In this document: positions 4,813-32,000 of the stretch, piece by piece
Layout: each line of letters starts with the position of its first letter
Position numbering within the stretch: position 1 is the stretch's first letter
Assembly (NCBI RefSeq): GCF_002075285.3
Contig: NZ_CP021983.2
Location: 1,320,001 to 1,352,000, forward strand
Direction: 5' to 3'
Length of the DNA stretch: 32,000 nt
Source: Halomicronema hongdechloris C2206
Lineage (GTDB): Bacteria > Cyanobacteriota > Cyanobacteriia > Phormidesmidales > Phormidesmidaceae
Notes under the pieces: model-generated
Database searches by the model: none
What the model saw: the letters and a program-made list of their open reading frames with translations, nothing else
Told to the model about the DNA's origin: nothing
Program-made: the position numbers and the translations under genes

Positions 4813-4817
4813 TTTAA

Positions 4818-6991: not shown

Positions 6992-6992
6992 A

Positions 6993-7285: not shown

Positions 7286-7316
7286 CTACTCACTACTCCT
7301 CTCTTCGCTACTCACG
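7286..7316. repeat. Half copy of the family B element, forming the last codons and the stop of MTase-1
   Basis: The sequence is ctactcactactcctctcttcgctactcacg. On the minus strand it encodes ...VSSEERSSE followed by the stop. Confidence 0.55.
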
Positions 7317-10300
7317 ATTTCTGACTCCCTCGGCGGATGCGCTACGCGAGGGTCGGCGGGGGGTGGGTCGAGGAGGGTTGGGTAGGGTTGGCCGCTGGCT
7401 ATGGCAGTAGCCATGGCGTCGTAGATTTGAAGGATGGTGTCTTTGGTGCGGTAGTGGCCGTGGGCTTTTTCGTCTTTGCGTTTGACTATGGGGAAGGTTT
7501 CCATGATGTAGTCAACGTCGTCGCGCTGGATGCCGTAGAGGTGGAAGTAGGCGGCGTCGAGTTCGCAGCGGAGTAGAAAGCGGCGGTCTTCGTCCCATTT
7601 GAAGGGTGGGCCTTCGTAGCCGCAATCTTGGGCAAAGGGTTGAAGGTCCCAAGCAGTGTATGTGAGTTCTAAAACATTCCCTGAAATAAAATCCTTCTGT
7701 TGCTGACTGTAAATTTGTGGTGGGACGATAGGTAACTGTTTGACAATATAAAAGTTTAGGTTCCCCCCACTTGCTTTTTGCTTGGCAACATAATCAAGAA
7801 CAAAAGAGTTGAGATTTGCGACTAGAAGACATGTTTCGAGAGGCTTTGTTTGAGAAAAGATCAGAGGCATTGAGTTTCCAACGCCAATCTTTGGAATAAT
7901 CGTGAAGGCGACGCTTCTAGCATCCGCAACAGCACTAATAGCATTGCGAAAACCAACTAACCATTCATGCTTCCAAAAATCAGGAATTTTTTCTTCAACA
8001 ACCTTTGATGGAACCCAATAGCGAGGCATAAAGTTCCATAATGGATTCTTCAAGTCTCCTTTAGTTGGTTTGTTCGTTTTTGCTCGTGTTCCATACATCT
8101 GATTCTCTGGAATTCCTGTGAATGTGGCTCCACGATGATTAAAAATTTGCGCAAATTTGGATTCGTATAAAGGTAAATATGTTGTTCCAGAACTAACGAA
8201 TGAATTGCTCTCAATACTAAATCTTTCCGCTTTTAACTGGCCTTGCGTTCGGAAGTGGCTGGAATCATTTGTCATATGCAGCATTCCAAGAAAAGAAACG
8301 CTCCAAGGATTATCATATGGATTCTCATTTAGTAAAACTGGAATCTTGGAATATATAGATTTAATCCTTTTTGCATCTCCGGCAGAAATAAAGATAGGAA
8401 GATTTTGGGTGTTTGGGTTTATCCGCAGAATATCTTCTCGACTTAGAACATATACTCTTTCTTTTTCCTTTAAATGATCAACCTGCCAAGCCTGAGCAGC
8501 CAAATGAAATTCTTCATCAAAGGACTTTGATATTGTCAGCAGAGAAAATGAAAATGTGCTCTCTGTACCATTAAAAAGGTAGCCTCTATTAGTAAAATCG
8601 AAGAAGCTAACCAATGTACCTTTTTTGATTATTTCTTGAATAAAGACTTTGTTTGAATCGTCGGTGGCTATTCCAGAAGGAACGACACATCCTAAATAGC
8701 TTTTACTTCCAATAATGAGATACATCGTTTCGGTGAAGATGGTATAAGTGTTAATATCTCCACGTCCACATAGGGGGTATCGCCCTGAGTCGCGGACTAT
8801 TAAACTTTCTCCTTCTGCTTGCCGACAAGCAGCTTTGAATAGATGAAATAATTCAGGATCTTCTTGCTCTAAATCAGCAATCTTCCTACGCCGAGTCGCG
8901 GCGTTTCTAGCTTTTGATATATCTGGTCTTCGAGATGCAAACCATTCTTTTTCCTGAATCTTGATGCGTTCCCAGGGTGGATTCCCCAGCACCACATCAA
9001 ATCCCCCATCCCAACCAGGTTCAAGGCTTTCCTCATCCTCCGATTCCCGACTCTCGACTCCCGACTCCCCATTCCTTACCTGAAATACATCCGGAAACGC
9101 CAAGTGCCAATGGAAAAACTGGTACTGATCCCTCAGTCGCTCCACCTCATCCCGCATCCACTTATCCACACTATGGGGATTCCGCTCAATTCGCCGGAAC
9201 ACTTCTTCGGTGATGGGGTAGGGAAAACCAGAAGGGGGTGTAGAGCGAGTAGAGGAGTAGGGAGTAGCGAGTAGTGATTCTTGAGAACCTTCTACTCCTC
9301 CATTCGCTATTCCTCTATTCGCTTCCTCACCAGAAGGAGGGCGCTTGAGCCAGACAAAGGCTGCACACCAGGCATCCGCCCAAAACCGGCTGAATAGGTA
9401 AGGCGTAGACTGCACCATCGCCTCATACTGCTGCCGCTTGCGCTGCACCCCGGCATAGTCATCATCCGAAATGTCATCCACCTGGGCCATGCTCGTCGCC
9501 AGATCGCCCAGGCGCTCCCACGGTTGCAGGTCTGGCGTCAGCAGACTCAATTGCCCCTTACGCTCCTCTTTGTTCTGCTTCTTGTACTTGCTGCAATAGG
9601 CTTTGTCGTCCCCCTCAATAGGCTTAAACGCATCATCGGGAATGCCCTGACGCAGCAATGCCGGAGTTGCCCCCAGCAGACTGTTGCCACACTGAATATG
9701 GTGATCCAAAAACGACAGCGGCTTCCCTGGCTCTAGCGCCTCCATCCACAGGGCCACCTTACACAGCTCCACCGCCATCGGGTTCACATCCACCCCATAA
9801 ATGCAGCGGCCAATGACATCCCGCAGCGCCGTCTGGGTGGCCTCTGGGGCAGGTTCTTCATCGCCCGTGCGCACAAACGCCAACCGCTTTGCCAGCCGAT
9901 GGGCGGCGGCAATTAAGAAATGGCCACTCCCGCAGGCCGGGTCGCAGATTTTGAGGTTGAGCAGAGCGGTTTCGGCATCCAGATCATCCGCTGCGACTGC
10001 TGAAGAGATCGCCTCATCCACGACCGGATCTAATGCCGAATCGAGCAGGCACTGCACCAGACTTTCAGGAGTGTAGTAGCTGCCGGTGGTCTTACGTTCA
10101 TTGCCGCTGGCGGTCTTGAGGGAAAAGGTGCCGGTGCTGATATTCAGTTCGGGGTGTAGCTCCAGCAGAGACTCATAAACACTGCCCAACTCCTCCGATT
10201 GCAGATTTTTGTAGTCCACCGGACGACGACCGTGCTTATCCAGAATGAAAGCCAGGGCACGGATAGCGTCGAGGAGATCGGTATTTGCGATTTGGCAAAA

Positions 10301-11557
10301 CTCGCCCTCACCCCCAGCCCCTCTCCCGTTCTGGGAGAGGGGAGTTTGAGAGTCTTGTCCCCCTTCTCCCAAATTGGGAGAAGGGGTTAGGGGATGAGGG
10401 GAATTCCCCAACAAATCCGCTACGGCATCGCTCGACCAGAGGAAACTGCCCAAAGCCGGTAGCGCCAGTTCAGGGCAGCCGTGCTCACTGCCCAGCTTTT
10501 CCATCACCAGGCGCAGACCGTGAAACAGGTCGCTGTGGCGGGTGCCCCGACGCTTTTCTGCCAGAGTGCGCAAGCGAGCGGTGGAGTAGTAGAGGGTGTA
10601 GCGATCCTTCGCGGCGGGTGTAGCGTTGGGATCGAGCAGCAGTTCCCGGTCTTCGGCGACGAACAGAAACAGCAGGCGGTAGACCAGCCGCAGTAGTTGG
10701 CGGTAGTAGTCTTGGGTTGCCAGCTCCCCAGACTGGAGCTTTTGCCGCAAGGTACGGTTAGCCGAGTGGGTCAAAAAGCCCTGACCCAGGGATGCGATCG
10801 CAGTCTCCACCCCATCTCGCAGGGCCTCCAAAGCTCGCTTGCCCTGATCGTTCGCCGTCTTCGACCAGACCTCAAGCCAGCACTGTTCGGGCTTTTCCGC
10901 TTCTACCCGTGACTGGTGACACAGCAGCCACAGCAACACAAAGTCGGCATAGACCTCCCCGGCCATCATGGCTTCCAGGTCAAACTCCACATAAGCCTGG
11001 CGGGTAAGGCTGGCATTGTCTCGCAGAATCCGCAGCCGTCGCCCATTGGAGACAAACGCCCACAGGTGATCATCCGAACGGTTCAAAAACTCCTGCACCA
11101 GACTGTGGGGACTGCTACGGGCGGCTCCGGCAACCCCAGCGGTGCGCTTGTCCAGATCTACGCGGTAGCCCACCAGATGAATCGGCGTGTTTTGCCAGAG
11201 ATGGGAGATGGGGTAAGCCTTGCCCTCAATTTCGATGGCGCGGGTGGTGGTCAGCCGTCCGTAGCCCAGCTCCTGGAAAAGCGGCAAGAGGATGCGATCG
11301 CGGGTCACTTTGGTGGCTGCGTCAGACTCGGGCAGCCTTTCTAACGCCCCTTGAAAGCTAGCCCAGGCTCCACGCAAACGACTCCAGGAACGGTTGATGG
11401 CTTCGTTGAGCTTTTCCCCTTCCAGCAGGTGATAAGCGGCTGGGGTGAGTCCGTCGAGGTCGTTATCGTTATCCACAATCCGCTGCAGCAGGTCGGTGGG
11501 GAGAATGGCCCCTTCGGCTCGGACGGTGGTGAAGATGTTTTTGGCTCGAACTTTCAT
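7286..11557 (-). CDS. Large N6-adenine DNA methyltransferase, PglX/DrmMI/Eco57I-like gamma class (1423 aa), here called MTase-1
   Basis: Motifs read [20 protein letters not shown] (motif I), [22 protein letters not shown] and [11 protein letters not shown] (motif IV NPPW, nt 8972-8983). It is paralogous to the next gene along almost its whole length. Confidence 0.85.
9045..9070. repeat. Short tandem heptamer repeat (tcccgac tctcgac tcccgac tcccc) inside MTase-1
   Basis: Read directly from the sequence. It encodes part of [11 protein letters not shown] just upstream of motif IV. MTase-2 has no equivalent sequence. Confidence 0.6.
9241..9326. repeat. MITE-like palindromic element, family B (gcgagtag / ctactc type), in frame inside MTase-1
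   Basis: The sequence reads gcgagtagaggagtagggagtagcgagtagtga...ctactcctccattcgctattcctctattcgcttcc. It translates as [30 protein letters not shown], which is absent from MTase-2. Confidence 0.7.
10304..10401. repeat. MITE-like palindromic element, family A (GC-rich, two internal hairpins), in frame inside MTase-1
   Basis: The terminal inverted repeats are gccctcaccc...ggggatgagggg. The internal hairpins are cccctctccc-gttct-gggagagggg and cccttctccc-aaatt-gggagaagggg. The element translates as [34 protein letters not shown], which is absent at the aligned position of MTase-2. Confidence 0.75.
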
Positions 11558-11619: not shown

Positions 11620-11654
11620 GCCCTCACCCTAGCCCTCTCCCGAGGGGAGAGAGG
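11620..11654. repeat. Half copy of the family A element at the 3' end of MTase-2
   Basis: The sequence gccctcaccctagccctctcccgaggggagagagg matches the left half of the 12215 copy almost exactly. It contains the MTase-2 stop codon (11629-11631). Confidence 0.7.
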
Positions 11655-14600
11655 ACAAGAGATTCGGCGGTAGGCCAAGATTACTATGGTAGGCAACCCC
11701 TGACTTCATTGCTGCTGCTAGCTGATCATAGATTCGCAGGATGCGGTCCTTGGTCTGGAAGCTGCCGAACTTTTGCCGGTCTTTACGCTTCACAATAGGA
11801 AAACTCTCCAGCATGAAGTCCACATCCTCTCGCTGGATGCTGTAGAGGTGGAAGAACGCTGCATCGAGTTCAGCCTGGAGCCATGAGCGGCGATCGGGAT
11901 TCCAGGGGAAGGGCGCGGCCTCGTAGCCACAGTCTTTCGCGAAACCCTGTAAATCCCAGGCGGTGTAGGTCAGTTCCAGAACCCGAGGTAAAATCCAGTC
12001 TTCTACGGTAAGGGTGGTATCCCAGGGACAGGGCTGCTGATAGGTAGAGGGAGGCAGGGTCGGTAGTTGGCGAACGATGTAGTCAGACAGATGATTGCCG
12101 GGGGTGCTCTGGCGGCAGAAGAAGTCGAAGCAGAAGCTGTTCCAGTTAGCGAGCAGACTGAGCAGGGTGCTGATTTCTGAATGGGAAGAGTTTTTTGGCT
12201 CAGTTGCCTCTGTCGCCCTCACCCTAGCCCTCTCCTGTGGGGAGAGGGAACTGGAGGTGGATTGGCTCCCCTCTCCCAGAGGTAGAGGGGTTGGGGGTGA
12301 GGGAGGGTTGTAGTCGTCCAAAAACACCACCCGAATGCTGCATAATACCGCTGTTTTCGGCAGAACGCAGGCAATCATGGTGCGGGTGTTGGTGGCGCTG
12401 GTGACATCCTTAAACCCCATCAGCCATTGGTAGGGGTAGCCCTTGGGGATTCGCTGAGCTGTGTCCTGGGGAGAGGCCCAATAACGGGACTGGGCCAGGA
12501 AGTAGGGATCGGTGCGCGCTTCATCGGAAATAGCGATGCTGACGCCAGTGCGAAACATGTTTTTGTCGGTAATACCGGCTGAGCCTTCCCGATGGTTGAA
12601 GCTGCTGATCATGCGGGCTTCGTAGCAGCGGATGAGGTCCGTCTGATCGGGGTCAACGGAGGTGGCAGGCTTGAGCAGGCCGATATCGGCTGTCTGACTG
12701 AAAAGTCCCTGGGTGATGCGTAGCTGCCAGCGATCGCCCTGGTGATCTGACTGCCCCAGCACGGGAATGGTCTGGTAGACCTGCCTGGTAATGGCAAATT
12801 CCCGTTGTGATCGGAAGGTGAGACAGGTCTTGGTGCCGGGGTTGAGCAAGTTAATGTCGTCGAGGGTGAGATGGATGTGGCGATCGCTCTGAGCCAAATC
12901 TTCGATGCGGTGGGCGAAGAACACAAAGTCGGCTTGCTCCATGGGTTGCTGACTACCGGAGAGGGTCATCAGGGCAAACCGCATCCGGGAGTCTACGGCG
13001 GGGAAGAAGATTTTGGCCCGGTTCTCAAAGTCGTAGTAGCTGACCAGAGCCTTCGACGCCATCAGATCCTGGAAGAAATATTTGGTGGTATCGGCAGTGG
13101 CCATACTGGAGGGCACAATGCAGCCGAGCCGTCCGTTAGGCTGCAGCAGTAGGCGGTTGATTTCGGCAAAAATAGCAAAGGTATTGATGTCGCCCCGACC
13201 ACAGAGGGGATACTTGCCTGAATGGTGGATGAAGTGGCTTTCCCCATCAGACTGGCGGCAGCGCTCTATGAACTGAAGGTAGAGATAGGGATCTTCCGTC
13301 TTGAGGGCCTGAATCTTCCGCTTTCGTTCCGTCGCATTCACGGCATTGGAAATATCGGGGCGATGGGCAGCAAACCATTCTCGCTCCTGGACTTTGATAC
13401 GCTCCCAGGGAGTATTGCCCAACTCCACATCAAAGCCGCCAGACCATCCAGCTTGTTCGTTTTCAACGGCTTCAGCTTGTTTGGGAACACGAAAAATATG
13501 GGCAAAGGCAACATGCCAATGGAAGAAATGGTACTGAGCTTGGAGGCTTTCTACCTCTCCCCAGAGCCAATCAGCCGCATTGTAGGGATTCTGCTTAATC
13601 TTGCGGAACACTTCTTCCGTCAGCGCATAGTCAAGTTCTGGCGTTTTGCGCCAAACAAAGGCAGCACACCAGCTGTCGGCTCGAAATCGGCTGAAGCGGT
13701 ACTCGATGGAAGCGAGAAGTTCTTGGTATTTCCGTTGCTTGAGCTGTACCTGGGCGATGGATTCATCGGGGATACCATCCAGCTCGGCCATCTGAGCAGC
13801 TAGTTCTTCAAGCTGTTGCCAGGGTTGATGTTCTGGGGCATAGGCGGCCACATCCTCCAGCCATCCCCAGGGGCGTGTGGAAGGATCGACTAGAGTGAGC
13901 TGGGCTTGCTCGCGTTCCCGTTTGTTTTGACGTTTGAGGTCGCGGCAGAGAGCTTTGTCGTCCCCTCGGATGGGCTTAAAGGCATCATCGGGAATGCCAC
14001 TGGCCATCAGAGCAGGGGTGGCCCCAATCAGAGAATTGCCCCATTGAATATGGTGTTCCAGGAAGGGCAGCGGTTTCCCCGGTTCCATAGCCTCCATCCA
14101 CAGGGCCACCTTACACAGCTCTACCGCCATACGGTTCACGTCTACCCCATAGATGCAGCGGCTGATGACCTGGCGCAGGGCGGTGCGGACGGCATCCAGC
14201 CCTGGCTCTTCTTCTCCAGTGCGAAGGGTAGCTAATCGCTTGGCCATGCGCTGGGCCGCAGCGGTTAGGAAGTGGCCGCTACCGCAGGCGGTGTCACAAA
14301 TTTTGAGGTTGAGAATGGCGGCTTCTGGGTCTGGCTGGCGAGCAGCCTTGTCTAGAACTGGATCCAGGGTGGTTTGGAGCAGGGTCTGAACCAGGCTTTC
14401 GGGGGTGTAGTAGCAGCCGGTGGTCTTACGGCTATTGCCCTCGGCGGTCTTAAGCTTGAAAGTTCCGGCATCAATGTTGAGTTGGGGATGCAGCTCCAGC
14501 AAGGATTCGTAGATGCTTCCCAGCTCGCGGGATTGGAGGTTTTTGTAGTCTACGGGGCGTCTGCCGTTGCGATCGCAGATGAACGCCAGCGCCCGAATCG

Positions 14601-15777
14601 TTTCCAGTAAGGCTGAGTTGGCGAGTTGGCAGTCGTCAAGTGCAGGAGTGGCCTCGTTCGACCACAGGAAACTGCCCAAAGCGGGAAGCCCTAATGCGGG
14701 GCACCCCTCATGCCCCAAATGCTGCATGACAACCTGAAGCCCCTGGTAAAGGTCATGGTGACGGGTCCCACGATGGCGATCGGCTAGGGAGCGCAGACGA
14801 TTGACGGAGTAGTAGCGCTGATATCTTTCCTTAGCTTCGGATGAAGCAGCGGGGTCTAGCAAAACATCCCGATCTTCAACCACAAACAGAAATAGCAAAC
14901 GGTAAACCAGCCGCCTGAGCTGGTGGTTATATTCCTGAGCCGACAGTACTCCAGTTTGCAGCAGCCGACGCAACTCCTGATTCGCAGGGTGGGATAGGAA
15001 TCCCTGCCCTAGCGTCGAGATGGCGACTTCTACCCCTTTGCGGAGTTGCTCCAGTGCCCGCGTGCCTTGGGAGTCCGCAACCTGAGACCACTTTTCCAAC
15101 CAGCACCTGCTAGGCGACTCTGATTCTACCCGCGATTGATGACACAGCAGCCAGAGCAGCACGAAATCAGCGTAGACTTCACCGGCCATCATGGCTTCCA
15201 GGTCGAACTCGACGTAGGCTTGCCGGGTCAAGCTGGCGTTGTCACGCAGGATGCGAAGTCTATGGCCATTGGCAAGGAAGGCCCAGAGATGCTGGTTGGA
15301 GCGATTAAGTAGCTCTTGCACCAGGCTATGGGGGCTACTTTTAGCCGCACCAGCAATCCCGGCGGAGCGTTTATCCAGGTCTACTCGGTAGCCTACGAGA
15401 TGAATAGGCGTATGGTGCCAGCCGTGGGAGATGGTATAGCGTTTGCCACCTACTTCGATCTCTGGGGCGGGGGGCAGGCGACCGTAGCCTAGCTCTTGAA
15501 ATAGCGGGAGTAGAAATTTTTCACGGGTCAAGCGGGTAGCGGCATCGTCTAAGGAGAGTTGGGTCAGGGCATGTTGGAAGTTGACCCAGGCACCACGCAG
15601 TCTACTCCAGGAGCGGTTGATGGCTTCGTTGATGCGATCGCCTTCCAGCAGGTGGAATGATTTGGCATCCAGCCCATCCAGGTCTTTATCTCCACTCACA
15701 ATCCGCTGGAGCAGGTCACTGGGGAGAATGGCTCCTTCTGAACGGACAGTGGTGAAGATGTTCCTGGAATGGCGCAT
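11629..15777 (-). CDS. Large N6-adenine DNA methyltransferase paralog (about 1382 aa from the ATG at 15777), here called MTase-2, with non-canonical motifs I and IV
   Basis: Same architecture as MTase-1: [42 protein letters not shown] and ELGNTPWERIK (nt 13405-13416). The track start is a TTG at 15783. The ATG at 15777 gives MRHSRNIFTTV, parallel to [12 protein letters not shown] in MTase-1. Confidence 0.85.
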   Translation of the reverse strand: MRHSRNIFTTVRSEGAILPSDLLQRIVSGDKDLDGLDAKSFHLLEGDRINEAINRSWSRLRGAWVNFQHALTQLSLDDAATRLTREKFLLPLFQELGYGRLPPAPEIEVGGKRYTISHGWHHTPIHLVGYRVDLDKRSAGIAGAAKSSPHSLVQELLNRSNQHLWAFLANGHRLRILRDNASLTRQAYVEFDLEAMMAGEVYADFVLLWLLCHQSRVESESPSRCWLEKWSQVADSQGTRALEQLRKGVEVAISTLGQGFLSHPANQELRRLLQTGVLSAQEYNHQLRRLVYRLLFLFVVEDRDVLLDPAASSEAKERYQRYYSVNRLRSLADRHRGTRHHDLYQGLQVVMQHLGHEGCPALGLPALGSFLWSNEATPALDDCQLANSALLETIRALAFICDRNGRRPVDYKNLQSRELGSIYESLLELHPQLNIDAGTFKLKTAEGNSRKTTGCYYTPESLVQTLLQTTLDPVLDKAARQPDPEAAILNLKICDTACGSGHFLTAAAQRMAKRLATLRTGEEEPGLDAVRTALRQVISRCIYGVDVNRMAVELCKVALWMEAMEPGKPLPFLEHHIQWGNSLIGATPALMASGIPDDAFKPIRGDDKALCRDLKRQNKREREQAQLTLVDPSTRPWGWLEDVAAYAPEHQPWQQLEELAAQMAELDGIPDESIAQVQLKQRKYQELLASIEYRFSRFRADSWCAAFVWRKTPELDYALTEEVFRKIKQNPYNAADWLWGEVESLQAQYHFFHWHVAFAHIFRVPKQAEAVENEQAGWSGGFDVELGNTPWERIKVQEREWFAAHRPDISNAVNATERKRKIQALKTEDPYLYLQFIERCRQSDGESHFIHHSGKYPLCGRGDINTFAIFAEINRLLLQPNGRLGCIVPSSMATADTTKYFFQDLMASKALVSYYDFENRAKIFFPAVDSRMRFALMTLSGSQQPMEQADFVFFAHRIEDLAQSDRHIHLTLDDINLLNPGTKTCLTFRSQREFAITRQVYQTIPVLGQSDHQGDRWQLRITQGLFSQTADIGLLKPATSVDPDQTDLIRCYEARMISSFNHREGSAGITDKNMFRTGVSIAISDEARTDPYFLAQSRYWASPQDTAQRIPKGYPYQWLMGFKDVTSATNTRTMIACVLPKTAVLCSIRVVFLDDYNPPSPPTPLPLGEGSQSTSSSLSPQERARVRATEATEPKNSSHSEISTLLSLLANWNSFCFDFFCRQSTPGNHLSDYIVRQLPTLPPSTYQQPCPWDTTLTVEDWILPRVLELTYTAWDLQGFAKDCGYEAAPFPWNPDRRSWLQAELDAAFFHLYSIQREDVDFMLESFPIVKRKDRQKFGSFQTKDRILRIYDQLAAAMKSGVAYHSNLGLPPNLLSSLPSGEG
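12215..12303. repeat. MITE-like palindromic element, family A, in frame inside MTase-2
   Basis: The sequence reads gccctcaccctagccctctcctgtggggagaggg...cccctctcccagaggtagaggggttgggggtgaggg. It translates as PPSPPTPLPLGEGSQSTSSSLSPQERARVRA, which is absent at the aligned position of MTase-1. Confidence 0.75.
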
Positions 15778-15793
15778 TATCAAACTCTAAACG

Positions 15794-24500: not shown

Positions 24501-26973
24501 CAATTTTCCTTCTAACTGTTTGCAGAACAGATAGAGATCCATGATCAGTTTCGATCATCTCGATAAGTTGTGTCTTTCTTTCTTCCAACTGATCGCTAAT
24601 TACTCTTTTCCTTTGATTTACTCTTGCATCACGACGTAGGTTAAGCTCTTCTAATTCTGATTCAAGACTCCCTATTTGATCCAGACATTTTCTGATGTCC
24701 TGATCATTTATATTAAGCATTCTCAAAATTACTGGTAAATGCTGAAGAATATAATTCCGCGCACTCTTCACGTACAACTGTTGAGAATTTAGTAAATCAC
24801 GCCATATTTCTTCGATAGACTCAGTTTCAGTTCTATGAATACGCTGGAGGAGAACTCTAGCTGAGTTAATAAGGGTTTCTGCCAGACTTCCGTTGTCCTC
24901 AGGTAAATTAAACTTCAGCAGGACGATTTCTTGAGTAGAATGATCAAGCTGCCCCACAAATATATGTTCGGGTACTTTGTTCTGCTGAAGGGAGACATCA
25001 ATATCTTCTCTCAATAGATTTCTGACTGTTTGCACAGCACCTTCAACGGACTTCACTGCTATCCTAAAATTTCTGTTTCTAAGATTCTCGGACCAAAGTA
25101 CTCTCTCCCGCAACCCATCAAAACTACGGCTTTGTAGATATTTTTTGGCTAAATTTTGGACATCTTGGTTTGTTCCAGCAAATAAGCATAGTAGTCCGCC
25201 AACAGCCTCTGACGGTAAGTGAGATAGCCAAGGCCGAAAATATTGCTCTAGCGCTTGGGAATTAGCTGTGATGCTTTCTGCACTTCCTGTCCGAATGACT
25301 TTAGACACAGAAGATACAGCTTCTAAATCATTATCCTCATTTTCAATCTCTAAATATGTACCTAGAATAGTTCGCTGGGAACTGTGCAAGACGGAAGCGT
25401 TATCAATCCCTGTATATCTTTCACCGTCACAAAGCTGTTCAGGAGACCGCCACTCACCCTGCTGATTCAGTAATTGAATATGAGGTAGCAGAACTTCTCT
25501 AAAGCTCGCCAATGACTGAGAGGAAATTTTTAAGAAATAGTTGTAAACAGTAACCACCTCAGACGACGGGTTTGGGTATTGTGTTGCTAGCCAATCCAAT
25601 ATTTTTTTTAATCGGTTTAAATCATGGATTGTGTGCCGAACTTTAGGTAAAATAAATTCCTCAAACTCTTGAGACGAAATTTTATGCTTTAGTAGCAGTG
25701 CTGGTGTATGACTACATTCTTGTAGAGTCTGAGCTAACTGCCCAAGCAACGAGTCTGGTAAATCTCCTAGATAGTATTCAGGCAAATCGGCTATTGCATT
25801 TCCTAATTGCTTAATAGCATCCGTTCCAGATAAAAACATAGGTTTTATTTGGTTGCTCTCAAGACAAAATCGAATATCTAAATCATCACGTAACATGCCA
25901 GGCGTGATATACTTAGAGCTAGGCTGTTGTCTGAGGATTTCAGTTGCCTCTAAATCTATTGATTGAAGATCAATAATCTGTTGAGGCGATCGCGGCTGGT
26001 CATCTTGACCGACAAGCCACTCAGTTGTTTTGAGAGGTTCAATGATGGTCTTACGAAGGCTCTGATTTCGCTTCTCAAGAATGCTTAGTATCTTTAATAT
26101 TAGGCAAACATGGTCAAAAGGTTTTTGAGTCTTCTGTAGCAAGAATTCTAAAATATCATTGTCGTACCATTCCTCACATACCTGTCTAAGTGCTGGAGAT
26201 TCTTGAAGTTCCTCTTTGAGCATAGAATAGCTTGCATAGGAACAGTTATGCTCACTCTGGAAAACCTGTTGTAATTTAGACCTAAAATCAGCTAAATAAG
26301 ACGGCAAAAGTATTACATTCTTAGGTGCGATTGATTGTTCTGTCTTCAACTTAAGCCAATTAGCTTCTTTAATATGTTTCAAAAATTCTTCATTTAAATC
26401 TGAATCTGGAACCTGCATTAACTGAAGTAACAGCTCACAATATTGATCCGGTCGAGGCTGTTTCAGTATGACTGAGATAGCTGATTTGGGTGTCCATAGA
26501 GGAATCCAATCTGGACGATTCGTACAGGGAATGATCGTGACTAGTGTTCGTAGCTGAGAAGGCAAGGTGAAGTCAGGATTATTTAAATATGTACTATCTG
26601 CGATAGGGACAGATTTACCATCTGCTGACGTATGTAGTGGAAGGCTCTGCCAAAGTTCTTGCGTACCATAAATTGATACTTGCTTAAGAATTTCCCGTCG
26701 TTCCTCATCGCTAAAATCTTGCTCATGAAGAGCTGTTGCGTTTAAATCCTGAATCAAATTTTGGGGAGCAATAAGCTGTATGCCCAAAATTTTCAGTTGA
26801 TTCTGAGAAACGTCTTTGATCAAATCTGGAGAAAGGATGCGCCAAGGATCTAGAATCTGACGTGCTACTTTACCCCAAACAGCACTCGTCTGAGAGGCAA
26901 CATAGAGTGTATCTATGTTGTCATAATGCTCCGGAGAACCATGCAGTAGAAAACGTAGTGCTTGATTAGTCAT
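21523..26973 (-). CDS. Very large protein (1816 aa) with an internal sacsin/HSP90-like GHKL (Bergerat-fold) ATPase module
   Basis: At about residues 830-960 the protein reads IPFELFQNADDALLEY (N-box) and GKFGLGFKTVHLLS (G-box). I did not recognise the rest. Its ATG overlaps the stop of the upstream gene by 4 nt (26970-26973). Confidence 0.7.
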   Translation of the reverse strand: MTNQALRFLLHGSPEHYDNIDTLYVASQTSAVWGKVARQILDPWRILSPDLIKDVSQNQLKILGIQLIAPQNLIQDLNATALHEQDFSDEERREILKQVSIYGTQELWQSLPLHTSADGKSVPIADSTYLNNPDFTLPSQLRTLVTIIPCTNRPDWIPLWTPKSAISVILKQPRPDQYCELLLQLMQVPDSDLNEEFLKHIKEANWLKLKTEQSIAPKNVILLPSYLADFRSKLQQVFQSEHNCSYASYSMLKEELQESPALRQVCEEWYDNDILEFLLQKTQKPFDHVCLILKILSILEKRNQSLRKTIIEPLKTTEWLVGQDDQPRSPQQIIDLQSIDLEATEILRQQPSSKYITPGMLRDDLDIRFCLESNQIKPMFLSGTDAIKQLGNAIADLPEYYLGDLPDSLLGQLAQTLQECSHTPALLLKHKISSQEFEEFILPKVRHTIHDLNRLKKILDWLATQYPNPSSEVVTVYNYFLKISSQSLASFREVLLPHIQLLNQQGEWRSPEQLCDGERYTGIDNASVLHSSQRTILGTYLEIENEDNDLEAVSSVSKVIRTGSAESITANSQALEQYFRPWLSHLPSEAVGGLLCLFAGTNQDVQNLAKKYLQSRSFDGLRERVLWSENLRNRNFRIAVKSVEGAVQTVRNLLREDIDVSLQQNKVPEHIFVGQLDHSTQEIVLLKFNLPEDNGSLAETLINSARVLLQRIHRTETESIEEIWRDLLNSQQLYVKSARNYILQHLPVILRMLNINDQDIRKCLDQIGSLESELEELNLRRDARVNQRKRVISDQLEERKTQLIEMIETDHGSLSVLQTVRRKIEHGQYGYDISNIPFELFQNADDALLEYERLLGQSLPERNHFVLSLHDQGLTIMHWGRPINMVTHPDVQDEDSELSGFKRDLVKMLSFSDSSKGEDETGKFGLGFKTVHLLSRQPCVISGDIKFIIYAGLLPRSLPRPGQEDEDEGLTSNLRRFLQEHSPSPDINDGTIINLPFDSEILDPADSATESFYRSVGLLLVFSKRIKSCTLLNEAGGEENTRLTWSPQPVLGISEVEFGQIRLPKFNGNDLIWQSHNLLNFNLRSGNVAFVIPSDLSENSPLLNSPKLWVTNPTKESLNIRFVVNSHFDITTGRTSLDRNSKRNQDLIRDIGMQLGEVLCGLFFSSEGNWLALRQALHLNETISAYHFWNFLWDVLVKDWLRLNSDETILQLLKAGFSTEYYGCGYLISCHASLPNGLFGNARQLVRFDQITHKITGILSDQEIFNIVSNWPNFEDSSSRWVHHQVWQDVVKLMGTSSHQPSSLKLADILVEALGNRNVNPEIACSIGNLVNPSRMTQWKVSHLSEYEAIRQVLDGEPLGFMNQAAGYLAASLLLVTHTGDLEERRLVAFAPSNRILHSDYTDTALEFFRVCRPRRETIAVEELVEWARSATTEEQRQAVRVYLSSGERSLEFSRQLQSSIENTWMKDDPAIRSLLQTKARQLQEERAIQGEIPWEQISSLDNDQASQDSEDPPEEPNPNDSRDLLDDIYRWWKEQGGREIRDYNQRLYPIGINELTQGLRDGNRSTWLMLFFIGATHTMGRTRHEQHRDFIRFCINQGWWNTFSESDPQDASEQWIYVLNDYLESLRQDTTWYYWMEKYPNIYQISKYLDEYQDSFLRAERIPHRFELVTLTNPRLASDLSGGGVDAPPLRLGIGANFVIRELVRFEIIEPTEYIFSHCFVPRAKIRRIMMRLGCQGLQSSDYRHSRHIYTFLQKEFKNLDLSDFPTFQNCFDIPFELYAKRHSLDLRGLLVREDLGWYEGLSDEDYFEDEPNGN

Positions 26974-28763
26974 GGCAGTAGTCTCCTTAATAGGTTGATG
27001 CGATTTTCAGGAGCCGCCAGGTGGGGACGTGTTTCGAGAATTGAGATGCAAGCTGTGCGATCGCACTCATTCAGAGATTCACACAATTTCTCCGCGATTT
27101 CTCGATCAACTAAAATAATCTCGGTGTTCTCTAAAGCCTCCTGTAATGGTTTTGCAAAGTTATTTTCGTTTTTTGATTTTTTGAAAATAGAACCACTCTG
27201 GGAATTAATTTCTCTAAGACTGTAGAGGGTTTCCTCACCTGTCCGACAGTTTTCTCCAAATATGAAGGACAATGTTTCAGTTTGGCTCCGAAATTCTGAT
27301 AAGTCATGGCCTGGAATGGCACGAATAATCTGATGAACAATTTCAATAATGAGAGATCGCTCTTCAGTGTTATCGAGCAATACAGAAATGACCGCCCCGG
27401 CATTTTGCCCTGATAGTGTTTGAGCTTCATCACTAGGACAGATCTGAGTGGGAATTAACAAAATGTCTAGGTCTTGATTATCGAGGTCTCGATTGAGATT
27501 TTGCAACAGTTCTTGATCAGGACAGTTGATGCAAAACCAATGTGATGGACTTAGCCTAGAAATGACGGATTGTATGAGCGTTCGCTGCTGCTCTAGTTGA
27601 TGAAACTCCAAATTAACGAGAGCGCTTCTTACTTGCTTCTGCAAACTCTCTTGGATGTCGTTGGATACTAACCACTCACTAGAAGTAGGGATAACAATGT
27701 TTAACCAACTCACAAAAAACTGCAGCTCAGCATCATTTTGAACAATGTGGATGATATCCAACGAGTCCAGAACTGTAATAATGTCATCATCTGCCCAGTT
27801 ATCCGGCTTCTCTAAAGGAATCAGATTAGGATCATTCTCAATAATGAGACAGGCAGAATTAGCAATCTGAGTTAATGCTGACCAGACATTCCAAGTTGGG
27901 CAGCGAGGCACAGCCAGTATGCGCTGCTGCGAACCGTCTACTAATTGCCACCGGGTATCGGCTGGTTGTACCCGATACACCCAATATCCTGGCTGATATA
28001 AATACTGATGTAAAACTTGTGTCTGAAAGAGCTTCGACTGTTTCAAAGCTTCACAAAGAACTCCAATATCAGATTGCTCTAGTTCAGAACTTTCACAAAA
28101 TTCGTTTAATGCTGGAAGAATCTGCGGTAATGTCCCTTTCGTTGCCAGAATTGTATTCCAAGCCCTGATCATTTCAGTATCGTTGCTTGGCGTTTGCGAG
28201 CTTCCATTGCCAGCATAGAGTTCATCTAGTCCTTCAATCGATTGCCGTCCAGAATCCAGAAAAAAGTATCCATGCAGCATCAGCGTATAATCCTGCGTTC
28301 CCTCAATGGAGATGCATTCATGCACAGCATGATTTCCACCTCCGTCAGCCAAGGGCAGAAAGACAGCCCATTGAATGATTAAACGGCTCTCTGCATTAGC
28401 AGGTTGGTGAGAGAAAACAACTCCACAATGGGGAATTGCCTTATCTGCTACAGTGATTGACCTACCAGTTAAATCGTTATAACTCGAACGTTTTGGCCAA
28501 TGGTCTGACTCCTTAAGAACAGTCCAAAAATCACCATTCAAGTCAGGCTGATCAGCAAGTAATCCTTGAAACTGTTGTTCTGGTAAAGACGCTTCGACTC
28601 CTCCGTACCTAGCCTGATGATTGGAGAGTTGGATAGAGCCTCGGAACGGGTGTTTTATATTATGCTCTGAAAGATTCCCCTTAGTTCTTGGATAGATAAA
28701 TCGCTGATCTGGAGTCTCTAATTGAATTGACAGTTTTTGGAATCTATCTTGATGCGAAAATAC
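26970..28763 (-). pseudogene. C-terminal fragment of an IS-disrupted sacsin-like GHKL ATPase gene
   Basis: The minus-strand frame is open from 28763 to the stop at 26970. It continues in phase from the N-terminal fragment once the IS and one target-duplication copy are removed. Confidence 0.8.
28756..28763. repeat. Target-site duplication gaaaatac (left copy)
   Basis: An identical 8-mer directly abuts both IS ends. Confidence 0.85.
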
Positions 28764-28796
28764 GGCTCTGCAGGAATGAGTATGCTGGTGTAGTAG

Positions 28797-29252
28797 ATGC
28801 TATACCGTATCGCTATGGTACCTCTCTTGAGTGAACTCTTGGGGTTGTCTGGCATTGATGTGGAGTCATACCAGGAGAGCGAGGATGGCTTGATTCTGGA
28901 GGTAGAAGCGCACAGGGACACAGCAATCTGTCCTCGCTGCGGGACTTTGAGCCACCACCTCCATCAGAATCATGGCTACCTGGTGCGTGACCTACCCATC
29001 AGCCATTACCGGAAGACCTGGTTACGGGTGAATCGCCGCCAGTTTAAGTGTTCGACCTGCGGTAAACCCTTCAGCGAGGAGCTGGAGTTTGTCGGCGCGC
29101 GTCGGGTGTACACGGACCGGTATGCCGAGGTGGTGGTGAGTGAGGTGATTCATAGTAATACGGCTAATGTGGCGCGACAGCACGGGTTGAGCGAAGATAT
29201 CGTCTGGTCCATGGTGGAGTATGTCAGCGAAAAAAAGTCTGTATTGACTTGA
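28797..29252 (+). CDS. ISL3 transposase, N-terminal ORF with zinc-finger/HTH region
   Basis: The protein reads ICPRCGTLSHHLHQNHGYLVRDLPISHYRKTWLRVNRRQFKCSTCGKPF, the zf-ISL3-like CxxC...CxxC pattern. Confidence 0.8.
   Translation: MLYRIAMVPLLSELLGLSGIDVESYQESEDGLILEVEAHRDTAICPRCGTLSHHLHQNHGYLVRDLPISHYRKTWLRVNRRQFKCSTCGKPFSEELEFVGARRVYTDRYAEVVVSEVIHSNTANVARQHGLSEDIVWSMVEYVSEKKSVLT
29231..29237 (+). promoter_or_regulatory. A_AAA_AAG slippery heptamer, in phase with ORF1; candidate -1 frameshift site joining the two transposase ORFs
   Basis: The ORF1 codons are GAA(29229) AAA(29232) AAG(29235). The -1 frame reads on as V C I D L S G L R R L G I D E I without a stop into ORF2. Confidence 0.4.
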
Positions 29253-30031
29253 GTGGATTGCGGCGGTTGGGCATCGACGAAATCGCGCTACGTAAAGGTC
29301 ACAAGGACTTTGCTGTGGTCTTGAGTGACCTCGATACTCACAGGCTGATTGGGATGGCTCCAGCGCGGACTCATGCGGCGATTGAAGCCGTGCTCAACAC
29401 CTGGGGTGCCGAAGTGCTCTCAAACATTGAAGAAGTCAGCATGGATCTCTCCGGCAATTACCGGGGCTTAGTGCATCGCCTGATGCCTCAAGCCGAGATT
29501 GTGGCCGACCGTTTCCATGTCATGAGTCTGGTCAATCAGGAATTGAATCAAGCCCGTAACGCCCTCCGGCGGACACCCGAGGCTTTAGCCGAGGGCGTCA
29601 CTCCTGAGGCGGCTAAAGCAGCGCTCAAATCCAGTAAGTATGCCCTCCTCAAGCCAGAAGCCCATCTCACCAAGACCCAGCAGGACAAGCTCGTTGAGGT
29701 CAAAGCTGTTTCGCCGAAACTCGCCTTGATGCATCAGACCAAAGAAGCCTTTAGGACTCTATTTGAGGCTCAGTCTTGGGCTCAAGCCCTGCCGGGTTTC
29801 CTGGGCTGGATGGGAACCGCGCAATCCCTCTACCCCGAGGCTGTGGCAACGATGAAGCGATGGTTTGGCGAAATCCTCCAGTACTTTGAACACCGCACCA
29901 CAAGCGGTGTCGTCGAAGGCATCAATACTCGCCTAAAGTTGATCAAGCGCTCTGGTTACGGGTTCACCAACTTTGAGCGATTTCGGCTCCGCTGCCTCAT
30001 CTGCTGGCATTTTTCTCCTGCTGCTGCATAA
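29249..30031 (+). CDS. ISL3 transposase, catalytic DDE part (the frame is open upstream to at least 29225)
   Basis: The protein reads LGIDEIALRKGHKDFAVVLSDLD...ADRFHVM...SGVVEGINTRLKLIKRSGYGF, typical of the DDE_Tnp_ISL3 core. The stop lies inside the right inverted repeat. Confidence 0.8.
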   Translation: MSGLRRLGIDEIALRKGHKDFAVVLSDLDTHRLIGMAPARTHAAIEAVLNTWGAEVLSNIEEVSMDLSGNYRGLVHRLMPQAEIVADRFHVMSLVNQELNQARNALRRTPEALAEGVTPEAAKAALKSSKYALLKPEAHLTKTQQDKLVEVKAVSPKLALMHQTKEAFRTLFEAQSWAQALPGFLGWMGTAQSLYPEAVATMKRWFGEILQYFEHRTTSGVVEGINTRLKLIKRSGYGFTNFERFRLRCLICWHFSPAAA

Positions 30032-30047
30032 TTATCCCAGGAGAGCC

Positions 30048-30055
30048 GAAAATAC
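30048..30055. repeat. Target-site duplication gaaaatac (right copy)
   Basis: An identical 8-mer directly abuts both IS ends. Confidence 0.85.
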
Positions 30056-30748
30056 CCAGTAGTAAATGGATTGTAGTGAGTTTAAACAAGGAATTAGGGT
30101 GCTAATTCGTCTATCTAAATCCCTGGGCAGATGTTGCTGAATTGTGTGATAATCATAGGTTTTAGACAGGAGTGCCCGAGGTTGATTTGAGATCCTCAAT
30201 GGTAGCCAGAGAACGAAATAATTTGAATAGTTTTGAGTTATTAAAATATCCTCTAAATAGTTCTCGACAGCGCTCTTATCTCGCGGGGTCATTGGTTGCC
30301 CATCTGCCCAGGGGGTTAAGAATCGATAGCTTTGAGCTTTTTCTGATAATTGGTCTGATTCGGCAATATAAAAGAATGATTCACAAAAATGGAAAACGCT
30401 CTTTTGTCCCAAGCCAAATTTACCAATCTTGGCTGAATTTCCAGCATTAAAATCGATTCCGATCCAACCAATCGCTTTTGCATCAGAATCTCGGAATCCA
30501 CCATTATTGACAAAGAATAAAGATGGTTGTTCTAGGAGAGGATGTTCGACTTCTGTTGAGGGTAATCCTGGAGTTACCCCCATATCTAAGCGAGTTGCAC
30601 CCGCATCATTCGCATTTTGAAGAATCTCTTTGATAATGGGAAATCCTTCTTTATATCGTTCCTTGAGTAGCGTTTGGATTTGATTAGCGATCGCTCCTGG
30701 CGGAACTTCTAATCCTGTTTTGTCAAACTCCTGCATATCGGTAACCAT
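30048..30748 (-). pseudogene. N-terminal fragment of the IS-disrupted sacsin-like GHKL ATPase gene
   Basis: The protein reads IIKEILQNANDAGATRLDMGV (N-box) and AKIGKFGLGQKSVFHF (G-box). The track ORF (30032-30748) reads on into the IS inverted repeat and stops there. Confidence 0.8.
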
Positions 30749-30765
30749 CAGTAGGCTTATAGAGC

Positions 30766-32000
30766 TTAGTTGAGAAATTTGCTAGGTTTTCCAACCCAGC
30801 AAATGAACAGTTCATCCCTTGCCCGCGTAAGGCTTACGTACAGAAGCTGCCTCTCCCTAGCCAGTACATCCTTCTGTAGCTGAGTATCCTTAGTCCTATT
30901 AACGAGATATTTCAGCGGCACCTGGTCATCCGATACATTCACTACAAACACCGCCTTAAACTCCAACCCCTTAGCCCGGTGCATCGTCCCCGCATTCACT
31001 GCCGACTCCCGTGCTCCCCCCTTCCGCAGGTTATGGCACTTGAGCCCAGCTTCCTTCAATGCACTCTCAAGCTGAGTAATCGCCTTGTTAGTACGAGCAA
31101 AAATAGCCACCTCTTCCGGGGCTAACCCCTCCTGGGTAATTGCTTGGATTTGCTTCACCAAGAACTCCTGTTGTTGCTCCTGGGTATTAAATCCCTTCAT
31201 GACGGGCTTGGGTCCACTCAAAAGACTGACCGTTCCCTTACGGCTCTCCTGTCCGCCATCCATGTCATCGCTCTGGTGACCCAGCATGGTATCGGCGAAC
31301 TGTCGAATTTGTTCCGTAGTGCGGTAGTTGATCCGGAGAATATGAGACCGTCCCCGCACATCCACCCCAAGCGCTTTGAGGCTAAACGGGGTGCTGTAAA
31401 TCCGCTGTCCTCCATCGCCTACCAGAGTGAGAGAATCATCCCCGTCTCCCGCCAATGCTGCCAGCAGCATAATCTCCTGGGGGCGCAGGTCCTGAAGTTC
31501 ATCTACGATGACGGCATCGAATGGACTTTCAACCTTCCCCGTGGTGACTAACTCCCTAGCTAAACGGCAAATGGAGGGGTAATCCATGCAACCCTTCTCA
31601 TTCAAGGTTTCATACACCCGCTGAAAAATCTGCCAGACCTGCTTTCGTCCCTTAACCGTTAGCGGAAACCCTCGACCTGTGCGGTTAGCACTGCGGTAGT
31701 CGTCCCAGGTGGTAACACCCTGGTCCTGAATGACCGTTTCCCATTCAGTCTTCAGCAGGTCGGGTTCTAGGGGACAGATACCAGGATGGTAATACTCATC
31801 GATAAGTTTCCAAATCTCGTCGTTATTGATGGGATAGAGATCTGAATTCGCTGTTTTGGCTAAAGCTAGCCCCTGGCTGTGAACCGTCGTTACCGTAATG
31901 CGCGATCGCTCCTCTGAGGTACATAGCAGCTCTAGGTTGTGCTCGATGTTTTCACACAGGGTCGATACATAGCTGGTCAAAAAGACCCGCTTACCCTGCC
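30766..32000 (-). CDS. UvrD/Rep-like SF1 helicase, C-terminal ~410 aa (5' end beyond the window)
   Basis: Motifs read AVIVDELQDL (motif II), LVGDGGQRIY (III), LRINYRTTEQI (IV), GTMHRAKGLEFKAVFV (V) and LLYVSLTRARDEL (VI). The frame stays open from 31980 to position 32000. Confidence 0.8.
   Translation of the reverse strand, partial: QGKRVFLTSYVSTLCENIEHNLELLCTSEERSRITVTTVHSQGLALAKTANSDLYPINNDEIWKLIDEYYHPGICPLEPDLLKTEWETVIQDQGVTTWDDYRSANRTGRGFPLTVKGRKQVWQIFQRVYETLNEKGCMDYPSICRLARELVTTGKVESPFDAVIVDELQDLRPQEIMLLAALAGDGDDSLTLVGDGGQRIYSTPFSLKALGVDVRGRSHILRINYRTTEQIRQFADTMLGHQSDDMDGGQESRKGTVSLLSGPKPVMKGFNTQEQQQEFLVKQIQAITQEGLAPEEVAIFARTNKAITQLESALKEAGLKCHNLRKGGARESAVNAGTMHRAKGLEFKAVFVVNVSDDQVPLKYLVNRTKDTQLQKDVLARERQLLYVSLTRARDELFICWVGKPSKFLN

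Follow-up and report, generated by a model that had tools for sequence, protein, structure and literature searches.

The window considered here is a 32,000-nt stretch of the Halomicronema hongdechloris C2206 genome (contig NZ_CP021983.2, positions 1,320,001 to 1,352,000), in which positions 7286-32000 are occupied by an array of seven very large genes encoding a UvrD-like helicase, two sacsin-like GHKL ATPases (GHKL1 and GHKL2), two SNF2 helicases (SNF2a and SNF2b), and two N6-adenine methyltransferases (MTases MT1 and MT2). This array is likely to comprise two defence modules, namely, an operon similar to type I of the ARMADA system (module A: UvrD, SNF2b, MT2, and MT1) and a GHKL1-GHKL2-SNF2a cassette nested within it (module B). 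The preliminary description of the array, made from its letters alone, had stated that it matches no named defence system, which proved wrong for UvrD, SNF2b, MT1, and MT2: these four, of the seven genes, are orthologues of ARMADA operon components. It had also offered a choice between a new system and a fusion of two; the comparison with a related locus (L087), the GC content, and the genomic context favour the fusion, with one system placed inside the other, and speak against a single seven-gene system. The duplication of the SNF2 and MTase genes, previously taken as a feature of one system, has to be abandoned as well, since the two SNF2 helicases share only 27% identity and belong to different modules. 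The seven-gene array resolves into an ARMADA operon with inserted cargo, which shows how little the limits of a system can be judged from operon-like spacing by itself.

The array is composed of the following features:

7286-11557, minus strand: MT1, 1423 aa (open reading frame (ORF) scan), with Eco57I/N6_Mtase domains
11629-15783, minus strand: MT2, 1384 aa (ORF scan), with Pfam Eco57I and N6_Mtase domains
15794-18670, minus strand: SNF2b, 958 aa, BrxHII/RapA-like SNF2 helicase
18716-21427, minus strand: SNF2a, 903 aa, RapA-like SNF2 helicase
21523-26973, minus strand: GHKL2, 1816 aa, second sacsin-like GHKL protein (XM38_012960, 100% identity)
26970-28763 (ORF piece 26970-28541), minus strand: 3' fragment of GHKL1, its frame restored after excision of the insertion sequence (IS)
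28764-30047, plus strand: ISL3-family IS, 1284 bp, interrupting GHKL1
30056-30748 (ORF piece 30032-30748), minus strand: 5' fragment of GHKL1, with the sacsin-like GHKL ATPase domain
30766-32000, minus strand: 3' 411 codons of a UvrD/GajB-like superfamily 1 helicase gene, the frame open to base 32000 and running off the window
18671-30765, minus strand: GHKL1(+IS)-GHKL2-SNF2a cassette, filling the UvrD/SNF2b intergenic slot, 41.1% GC

The coordinates of the seven large minus-strand ORFs were reproduced by the ORF scan, and the spacers between them (17 nt, a 4-nt overlap at 26970-26973, then 95, 45, 10, and 71 nt) follow from these coordinates as previously given. The statement that no opposite-strand gene apart from the IS interrupts the array also stands: the plus-strand ORFs of at least 100 aa all lie inside the large minus-strand genes and are antisense artefacts of G+C-rich DNA. 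The domain calls (two Eco57I/N6 MTases, two SNF2 helicases, two sacsin-type GHKL proteins, and UvrD) were upheld by Pfam, NCBIfam, and PADLOC.

The ARMADA-type operon

ARMADA systems were named in a 2025 preprint, where type I is defined by the composition and order of YprA, SNF2, and MTase genes, and the fusion of YprA with a Vsr/DUF559 nuclease is a signature of ARMADA and not of DISARM (PMC12458937). Type II protects E. coli experimentally and acts by a direct, non-abortive route; UvrD is restricted to this type, which is characterized by a strict SNF2-MTase-YprA-UvrD order and a RelE-like N-terminus of UvrD (PMC12458937).

A metagenome scan with SNF2b as the query returned 80 loci with relatives of 56-93% identity. 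A YprA-family helicase is encoded directly upstream of the SNF2b relative in 76 of them, and an MT1/MT2-like methyltransferase follows in nearly all loci for which downstream sequence is available. The YprA proteins at related loci combine DEAD, Helicase_C, and MZB (DUF1998) domains with C-terminal DUF559/Vsr domains, and such YprA genes with DUF559 are located upstream of orthologous UvrD/SNF2 genes in L099, L147, L150, L167, L168, and L001. A UvrD orthologue with 47-51% identity to that of the window lies between YprA and SNF2 in L099, L147, and L150. The same YprA-UvrD-SNF2 order was observed in L167 and L168, two loci found via a cyanobacterial YprA query, in which UvrD and SNF2b are closer to the window's proteins (58-60 and 76% identity, respectively). 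With respect to the methyltransferases, MT2 can be aligned almost completely with the L168 MTase, at 69% identity, and L167, which ends within the MTase N-terminus, shows 74% identity to MT2 over ~350 aa. Since the orthologues of UvrD, SNF2b, MT2, and MT1 co-occur in YprA-(UvrD)-SNF2-MTase operons, the four genes of the window belong together and, judging from sequence similarity, are orthologues of the components of an ARMADA type I-like operon.

Two of the three type I components are present in the window itself. SNF2b is a BrxHII/RapA-like helicase (PADLOC BrxHI and BrxHII, 220 and 174 bits) with 56-76% identity to the SNF2 proteins encoded between YprA and MTase genes in 76 of 80 loci, and it is directly followed, after 10 nt, by MT2, a PglX-like N6-adenine MTase with Eco57I/N6_Mtase domains. 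The third component is represented in the orthologous loci by the preceding YprA with MZB/DUF1998 and C-terminal Vsr (DUF559) domains. In the window (1-32000), the ORF and Pfam scan identified no YprA-family ORF with MZB and a Vsr-type nuclease; by analogy with the related loci, we infer that the gene would be located immediately upstream of UvrD, beyond base 32000.

The window UvrD (Pfam UvrD_C and UvrD-helicase; PADLOC GajB, 113 bits) resembles the GajB-like UvrD component of ARMADA type II. The gene order of type II is nonetheless absent: UvrD is upstream of SNF2b in the window, L150, L167, and L168, and in the cyanobacterial relatives it is placed between YprA and SNF2 instead of last. Residues 1-230 of the L150 UvrD gave no Pfam domain, and the N-terminus of the window UvrD is encoded beyond the window end. 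As the position of UvrD differs from that in published ARMADA loci, the YprA-UvrD-SNF2-MTase arrangement is treated here as a sub-variant. The window further differs from ARMADA in the tandem duplication of the MTase, one copy having an altered NPPW motif, and in the foreign three-gene cassette inside the operon.

Other assignments of the module A genes were considered and rejected. SNF2b is matched end to end by PADLOC DpdE (894 bits), whereas its relatives are located between YprA and MTase genes and not in a dpd cluster. The Hma, BREX, Dpd, and Zorya assignments were rejected because of partial, core-only matches or missed cut-offs. The N-terminus of SNF2b seems to form a small beta-rich domain (18570-18670, read from the sequence).

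It is very improbable that the locus represents a variant of class 1 DISARM in which DrmD and DrmMI are duplicated. Like that system, the window has SNF2 beside a large Eco57I-type adenine MTase, and PADLOC gives DrmD or DrmMI as the best or near-best match: DrmD for SNF2a (sub-model PDLC02634, end to end, 1351 bits, a model that has no curated cut-off) and DrmMI for both MTases (231 bits for MT1 and 179 bits for MT2). The DrmMI matches are, however, limited to the catalytic core, and the NCBIfam DISARM_DrmD model (NF038317) gives 336 bits for SNF2b and 296 bits for SNF2a against a cut-off of 610. No ORF for DrmA, DrmB, or the PLD nuclease DrmC was found in the window, and the helicase encoded upstream in the relatives is YprA in one piece, fused to Vsr/DUF559, i.e., the signature of ARMADA (PMC12458937). 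PADLOC probably files SNF2a as DrmD because its copies adjoin DISARM loci, for example, on plasmid C of Trichormus variabilis. With respect to BREX, the NCBIfam PglX models reach at most 54 bits for the window MTases against cut-offs of 400-900, and ORFs for PglZ, BrxC, and BrxL are absent from the window.

Cargo in the UvrD/SNF2b slot

The nested position of module B is best seen in the comparison with L087, a locus in which UvrD is 94% identical to the window at the DNA level; for SNF2b (91%) together with codons 1-630 of MT2, the identity amounts to 91-94%. The homology stops at the UvrD stop codon and restarts with the SNF2b start codon. The slot delimited in this way measures 1.7 kb in L087 (1333-3075) and holds genes for a 344-aa ParA-like ATPase (AAA_31) and a 214-aa HEPN protein of the RiboL-PSP type, whereas the slot of the window is 12.1 kb long and holds GHKL1 with its IS, GHKL2, and SNF2a. 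In L099, L147, and L150, UvrD abuts SNF2 with no cargo between them. Among the other ARMADA loci anchored on SNF2b, 0 of 79 contain a GHKL gene.

The array is also compositionally mosaic, a feature absent from the preliminary description. The GC content is 52.1% in the visible part of UvrD, 41-42% in GHKL1, GHKL2, and SNF2a, 55-56% in SNF2b and MT2, and 57.3% in MT1 outside a low-GC patch (7700-8900) of 38.6%. The IS, at 54.7%, resembles the host backbone and not the 41% cassette that surrounds it. Because of the L087 comparison and this difference in GC content, GHKL1-GHKL2-SNF2a is regarded as foreign cargo and not as a core of the methylation system. The comparisons indicate that the cassette is a horizontal acquisition in the UvrD/SNF2b slot and is dispensable from the ARMADA side.

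The opposite explanation is that all seven genes constitute one integrated ARMADA/DISARM derivative, in which the GHKL pair and the second SNF2 are obligatory accessories. Such an arrangement is consistent with the co-directional genes, the spacers of 10-95 nt, and the lack of a terminator-like site between the minus-strand genes, the promoter and terminator scan of the array having given results at the chance level. It is difficult to reconcile with a near-identical backbone that carries other cargo and no GHKL genes (L087), with the lack of GHKL genes in all 79 other ARMADA loci, and with a gap of 12-15 points in GC content between the two parts, and we consider it quite improbable; further evidence on both sides comes from the distribution of the GHKL genes (see below).

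Other insertions were noticed at related loci. In L167, a GmrSD_N protein is encoded between YprA and UvrD (13684-16248), and a CBASS operon lies immediately upstream of the ARMADA-like operon. A protein with a transglutaminase core is encoded between SNF2 and the MTase in both L167 (21184-22590) and L168 (12957-14363). In L098, a gene (20317-22116) that follows an ARMADA locus with two MTases in tandem encodes a 599-aa MORC-type HATPase_c_3 protein, which is another GHKL ATPase attached to an ARMADA-type operon; this protein matches the nuclease domain SduA_C of Shedu weakly, with a score below the threshold. ARMADA-type intergenic slots thus take up other defence genes, including GHKL-SNF2, ParA-like plus HEPN, GmrSD, and transglutaminase-like genes.

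The tandem methyltransferases

MT1 and MT2, which form a tandem pair as do the MTases of L098, share 51% identity overall, and their N-terminal ~900 aa are much closer. In MT2, proline is replaced by threonine in both signature motifs, DTACGSG standing for DPACGSG (aa 496-503) and GNTPW for GNPPW (aa 789-794). The GNPPW motif is retained in 34 of 34 related MTases, and MT1 has the canonical NPPW. As the NTPW of MT2 departs from the NPPW of all 34 relatives, MT2 may be a catalytically impaired paralogue. The low-GC patch of MT1 (1.2 kb, 7700-8900) coincides with the region of greatest divergence between the two proteins (aa ~890-1290) and looks like a swapped-in segment for target recognition. 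MT1 may be the active enzyme or an enzyme of second specificity.

Distribution and partners of the GHKL-SNF2a family

A genome scan with the GHKL2 alignment identified 359 genomic stretches with relatives among 185,579 species representatives; 80 of the 359 were examined as loci and, together with 6 loci from an exact-protein look-up and after removal of 2 duplicates, gave 84 non-redundant loci. In 54 of these, the GHKL gene is followed by an adjacent SNF2a-type helicase gene on the same strand, with a median tblastn gap of ~90 nt. The window has this GHKL(-GHKL)-SNF2a arrangement as well, with GHKL1 followed by GHKL2 (4-nt overlap) and then by SNF2a (95-nt spacer). Outside cyanobacteria, the module is usually a two-gene unit, in which a single ~2500-aa protein with two GHKL domains precedes SNF2. 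SNF2a is conserved at about 50-75% identity across the loci, as compared with 26-55% for the GHKL proteins.

The hosts belong to Cyanobacteria, Gammaproteobacteria, Desulfobacterota, Planctomycetota, Chloroflexota, Acidobacteriota, Bacillota, and Actinomycetota. Plasmid copies, some of them on conjugative plasmids, were found in Trichormus, Synechocystis, and Deinococcus, and no homologue of the family was detected in 50,697 phage genomes.

The proposed linkage of the GHKL genes to helicase and MTase genes holds for one helicase only. SNF2a is the conserved neighbour in the 54 loci mentioned above, whereas an MTase occurs in 10 and UvrD in 3 of 82 GHKL-anchored loci; neither is a conserved partner of the GHKL genes. 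A further fixed partner was not found in a Pfam census of 144 neighbouring ORFs, where no family occurred more than four times. GHKL modules were repeatedly observed in or beside defence loci, with ARMADA, DISARM, SPARDA, BrxE, and DruA neighbours.

This distribution bears on the explanation by a single integrated system in two ways. A gene for YprA, SNF2b, an MTase, or UvrD lies within 10 kb in 11 of the 54 SNF2a-type loci and in 12 of the 19 loci of a sister clade with DarT and Macro domains (described below), and tight co-directional arrays of GHKL and YprA-type genes were found in L045 (MT-x-GHKL-SNF2a-YprA, with overlapping stops and starts), L052, L038, L076, and L018. A further module lies beside a class 2 DISARM system on plasmid C of the model cyanobacterium T. 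variabilis ATCC 29413 (L169; NC_007412.1, 265095-294551), where an intact GHKL1-GHKL2-SNF2a set (AVA_RS29100-29090) is convergent with genes for DrmA, DUF1998, DrmC, and a C5 MTase. On the other hand, no gene resembling an ARMADA or DISARM component lies within 10 kb in 43 of the 54 GHKL-SNF2a loci, and the position and orientation of the module relative to the ARMADA genes vary, being upstream and divergent in L001 and convergent in L169. The nesting of two modules remains the preferred reading of the window. On plasmid C, the module is preceded by two co-directional large genes encoding proteins of 1012 aa and 1223 aa (the latter annotated as 'helicase-related'), both of which are also present in Nostoc L002.

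The nearest solved relative of SNF2a is RapA, and the helicase motifs of SNF2a are intact, as read directly from the sequence. The start of SNF2a contains GDRVNHPRFGSGEV (18716-18960, likewise read from the sequence), which we take to be a motif of the RNA-polymerase-binding Tudor domains of PcrA/UvrD. The N-termini of SNF2a and SNF2b hint at a contact with RNA polymerase as in RapA. No description of a GHKL-GHKL-SNF2 module was found in the literature searched or among curated models, and the module has no PADLOC name of its own. The new element of the locus is this GHKL(-GHKL)-SNF2 module with its effector-swapping relatives, a widespread family for which we found no description.

Domain architecture of GHKL2 and the effector slot

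GHKL2 consists of a helical N-terminal part of ~830 aa, a GHKL domain (aa ~831-1160), and a helical C-terminal domain (aa ~1478-1816). Its own scores for sacsin models are below the curated cut-offs (Pfam SACS, 24 bits; NCBIfam, 38.5 bits). The profile of the GHKL family, which includes the fused two-GHKL proteins, matched sacsin in the PDB (5v44, E 3e-17), followed by MORC2, and the N-box (E839/N843/D846) and the G2 box (G922-K929) are invariant; the sacsin-type assignment is based on these two observations. In a search of 5.8 billion proteins, the next matches past the bacterial family were animal sacsins.

The C-terminus of GHKL2 differs between clades. About 19 loci, all from Nostocales or Oscillatoriales, lack SNF2a, and their GHKL2 proteins align to that of the window up to residue ~1477 only. 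In 18 of these loci, a DarT ADP-ribosyltransferase domain (PF14487, 87 bits; PADLOC DarT) is fused at the GHKL2 C-terminus, and in 19 a Macro-domain gene (~224 aa) is located directly downstream, which reproduces the DarT/DarG pairing; examples are L015 (10004-15883), L013, L018, L020, L030, L054, and L083. The third clade comprises eight loci (L012, L014, L017, L022, L025, L028, L029, and L057) with a common C-terminal motif and neither SNF2a nor Macro. Of the four members compared with Pfam NOV_C/DUF3883, two exceed the cut-off, with 34 and 47 bits, and the others fall short of it (17-18 bits); a weak match was also observed between the C-terminal region of the clade and that of a TmtA model. 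DUF3883 has been termed a novel restriction endonuclease (REase) domain (PMC3710099). Some fused GHKL proteins bear an extra PD-(D/E)xK tail in common with the PADLOC candidate PDC-S68. Since the C-termini are clade-specific, the position after residue ~1477 of GHKL2 is considered an effector slot, and the family looks, from these domain fusions, like a conflict system with swappable effectors.

In the clade of the window, the slot is occupied by a conserved helical domain that is always accompanied by SNF2a. The C-terminus of the window GHKL2 gave no DarT match, and the next gene is SNF2a, not Macro. An AlphaFold2 (AF2) model of the C-terminal 617 aa is helical, with a predicted local distance difference test (pLDDT) score of 80; it has no Foldseek match below E 0.5, and the domain has no PDB sequence match and no Pfam domain in 14 homologues. 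The suggestion of an effector hidden in the GHKL proteins is hence borne out for the relatives, which carry DarT or NOV_C/DUF3883, and not for the window's copy with its helical domain of no assignable activity. In agreement with the previous reading of the motifs, Pfam, PDB, and Foldseek searches revealed no nuclease in the window's copy of the GHKL module.

A conserved motif, G-R-T-x-x-E-Q-H-R-x-F, was observed at aa 1581-1591 of GHKL2 (domain at window positions 21523-22530). It contains Rx5H (R1582-H1588), is 82-84% conserved, and lies at a loop-to-helix junction in the AF2 model. It resembles the HEPN RNase signature, a resemblance that is a lead at most and for which the Pfam, Foldseek, and PDB searches give no support.

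An explanation of the GHKL-GHKL-SNF2a module outside immunity, by a chaperone or DNA-remodelling function in a mobile element such as the maintenance of a plasmid or an integrative and conjugative element (ICE), is in our view unlikely. The chaperone function of eukaryotic sacsin (PMC3710099), the lack of a detectable nuclease or toxin domain in the window's copy, neighbours that include ICE and plasmid genes and no dominant defence family, and the copies on conjugative plasmids would agree with it. It accounts poorly for the sister clades, in which the platform is fused to DarT with a Macro antidote, to NOV_C/DUF3883, or in some proteins to the PD-(D/E)xK tail shared with PDC-S68. The patchy distribution and foreign composition of the module, its recurrent siting in or beside ARMADA, DISARM, SPARDA, BrxE, and DruA loci, and the occupation of the same slot by a HEPN toxin cassette in L087 also argue for a defence module.

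GHKL1 and its insertion sequence

The element in GHKL1 belongs to the ISL3 family, as demonstrated by matches to Pfam DDE_Tnp_ISL3 (213 bits), HTH_Tnp_ISL3, and Zn_ribbon_ISL3. Its ends (GGCTCT...) are inverted, and it is flanked by an 8-bp target duplication, GAAAATAC, at 28756-28763 and 30048-30055. Excision of the IS together with one copy of the duplication produces a single uninterrupted GHKL1 frame of 828 aa, which is homologous over aa 5-828 to the genes for proteins of 818-860 aa located upstream of GHKL2 at other loci. GHKL1 scores above the curated cut-offs of both sacsin models (Pfam SACS, 62 bits, cut-off 32.8; NCBIfam NF047352, sacsin ATP-binding domain, 71 bits, cut-off 50). Since the target duplication is intact, the insertion is considered recent. 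Module B is probably disabled in this strain by the interruption of GHKL1, and the IS may also affect read-through into SNF2b-MT2-MT1.

Relation of the GHKL module to known systems

Tiamat is reportedly a single-gene system, TmtA. The GHKL family shares with it the N-terminal sacsin-type GHKL ATPase domain, and the clade with NOV_C-type C-termini weakly matches the C-terminal region of TmtA. The matches are limited to the end domains, with 20-90 bits to profiles of 1300-1800 positions; the PADLOC TmtA match of GHKL1 (48 bits) covers positions 27-106 of 1370 and its N-terminal domain only, and that of GHKL2 (41.5 bits) covers positions 122-367 of 1486. Furthermore, the family described here has two GHKL domains on a platform of ~2500 aa, which is frequently divided between two genes, and it has an SNF2 partner of its own. 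By these comparisons, it is not a member of the TmtA family and is related to it at the domain level only.

Among eukaryotic proteins, sacsin has the GHKL domains nearest to the family (sacsin repeat region, PDB 5v44-5v47) and a similar architecture of giant proteins with repeated GHKL domains, and NO VEIN has the NOV_C domain in common with one bacterial clade. Unlike sacsin and NO VEIN, the bacterial proteins lack Ubl, DnaJ, and PF05168 HEPN domains and are linked in operons to SNF2 or DarT/Macro, within defence islands and mobile elements.

GHKL ATPases of the MORC/paraMORC type are said to occur in operons similar to restriction-modification systems together with superfamily 2 helicases. 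The teaming of a GHKL ATPase with a superfamily 2 helicase in a conflict locus is common to these operons, to Hma, and to module B. The GHKL subtype of module B is, however, of the sacsin type, not MORC or HATPase_c_3, and the module has no fixed methylase or endonuclease partner as a MORC/paraMORC or Hma locus would; with respect to Hma, there is only a partial helicase-core match to HmaA and no match to HmaC. The sister clade resembles DarTG in having a DarT domain and an adjacent Macro-domain gene. It differs in that DarT is the terminal part of a GHKL protein of ~1950 aa, which has another GHKL protein as its partner, and the clade of the window has neither DarT nor Macro.

Proposed functions and points against them

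By analogy with ARMADA and DISARM, the MTase of module A would mark host DNA, and the helicases, together with the Vsr nuclease of YprA, would act on unmarked incoming DNA. In module B, the GHKL pair is predicted to bind and hydrolyse ATP in the manner of MORC and Hsp90-type clamps; such a clamp or switch would sense an infection cue and then license an effector. The GHKL part would thus be a conserved ATP-driven platform, and the effector would be located at the C-terminal end of GHKL2 or encoded by the next gene, in three putative variants, namely, DarT with a Macro (DarG-like) antidote, a REase-like NOV_C/DUF3883 domain, and a helical domain with SNF2. In the window, a SNF2 translocase and the helical domain could act on invader DNA or its transcription, which suggests that they would interfere with DNA or with transcription complexes and not act by cleavage.

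A broader proposal, which we put forward only tentatively and regard as possible rather than probable, would make the sacsin-like two-GHKL proteins the sensor/regulator platform of a phylum-spanning immune family with interchangeable effectors (SNF2 and helical domain, DarT/Macro, NOV_C/DUF3883, or PD-(D/E)xK). This family would settle preferentially in or beside YprA-type systems (ARMADA and DISARM), cooperate with them, and be the prokaryotic source of the sacsin/NO VEIN architecture.

Several observations weigh against the division into two nested defence modules. With respect to module A, its YprA is not visible, the window ending inside UvrD, and published ARMADA systems have UvrD only in type II, with another gene order. 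The defence role of GHKL-SNF2 is deduced from genomic context and domain logic, and the genes adjoining the module, some of them from ICEs and plasmids, are not dominated by any defence family. Fold and profile searches revealed no assignable effector activity for the C-terminal domain of the window GHKL2, and the AF2 model of its N-terminal 830 aa is unusable (pLDDT 54). Finally, GHKL modules are near YprA-type systems in 23 of 73 loci, by our estimate more than simple independence suggests, and the two kinds of module may therefore cooperate. Such proximity is compatible with both kinds of module preferring the same islands or slots, and it may also reflect a cooperation in function.

The compact GHKL-SNF2 module, with no obvious nuclease, is a testable candidate system. 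If confirmed, it would place the sacsin-type ATPase, known from a human ataxia protein, in a bacterial context amenable to genetics, and it would introduce an SNF2 motor whose partner is a GHKL clamp and not a methylase.

Other genes of the window

Two further loci lie downstream of MT1, on the minus strand. The region 3301-6128 encodes a short prokaryotic Argonaute of 503 aa (PADLOC pAgo_I, 500 bits) and, upstream of it, a 436-aa partner with DUF4365/REase-APAZ domains (PADLOC Aga_REase-PNTD1-PNTD2, 268 bits). These genes, with a GC content of 43%, form a short-Argonaute system of the SPARDA type, the presence of which makes the window a defence island. Between the SPARDA genes and MT1, at 6292-7078, an ORF for a PIN-domain toxin of 157 aa overlaps an upstream ORF of 136 aa, and the two probably constitute a VapBC-like toxin-antitoxin pair.

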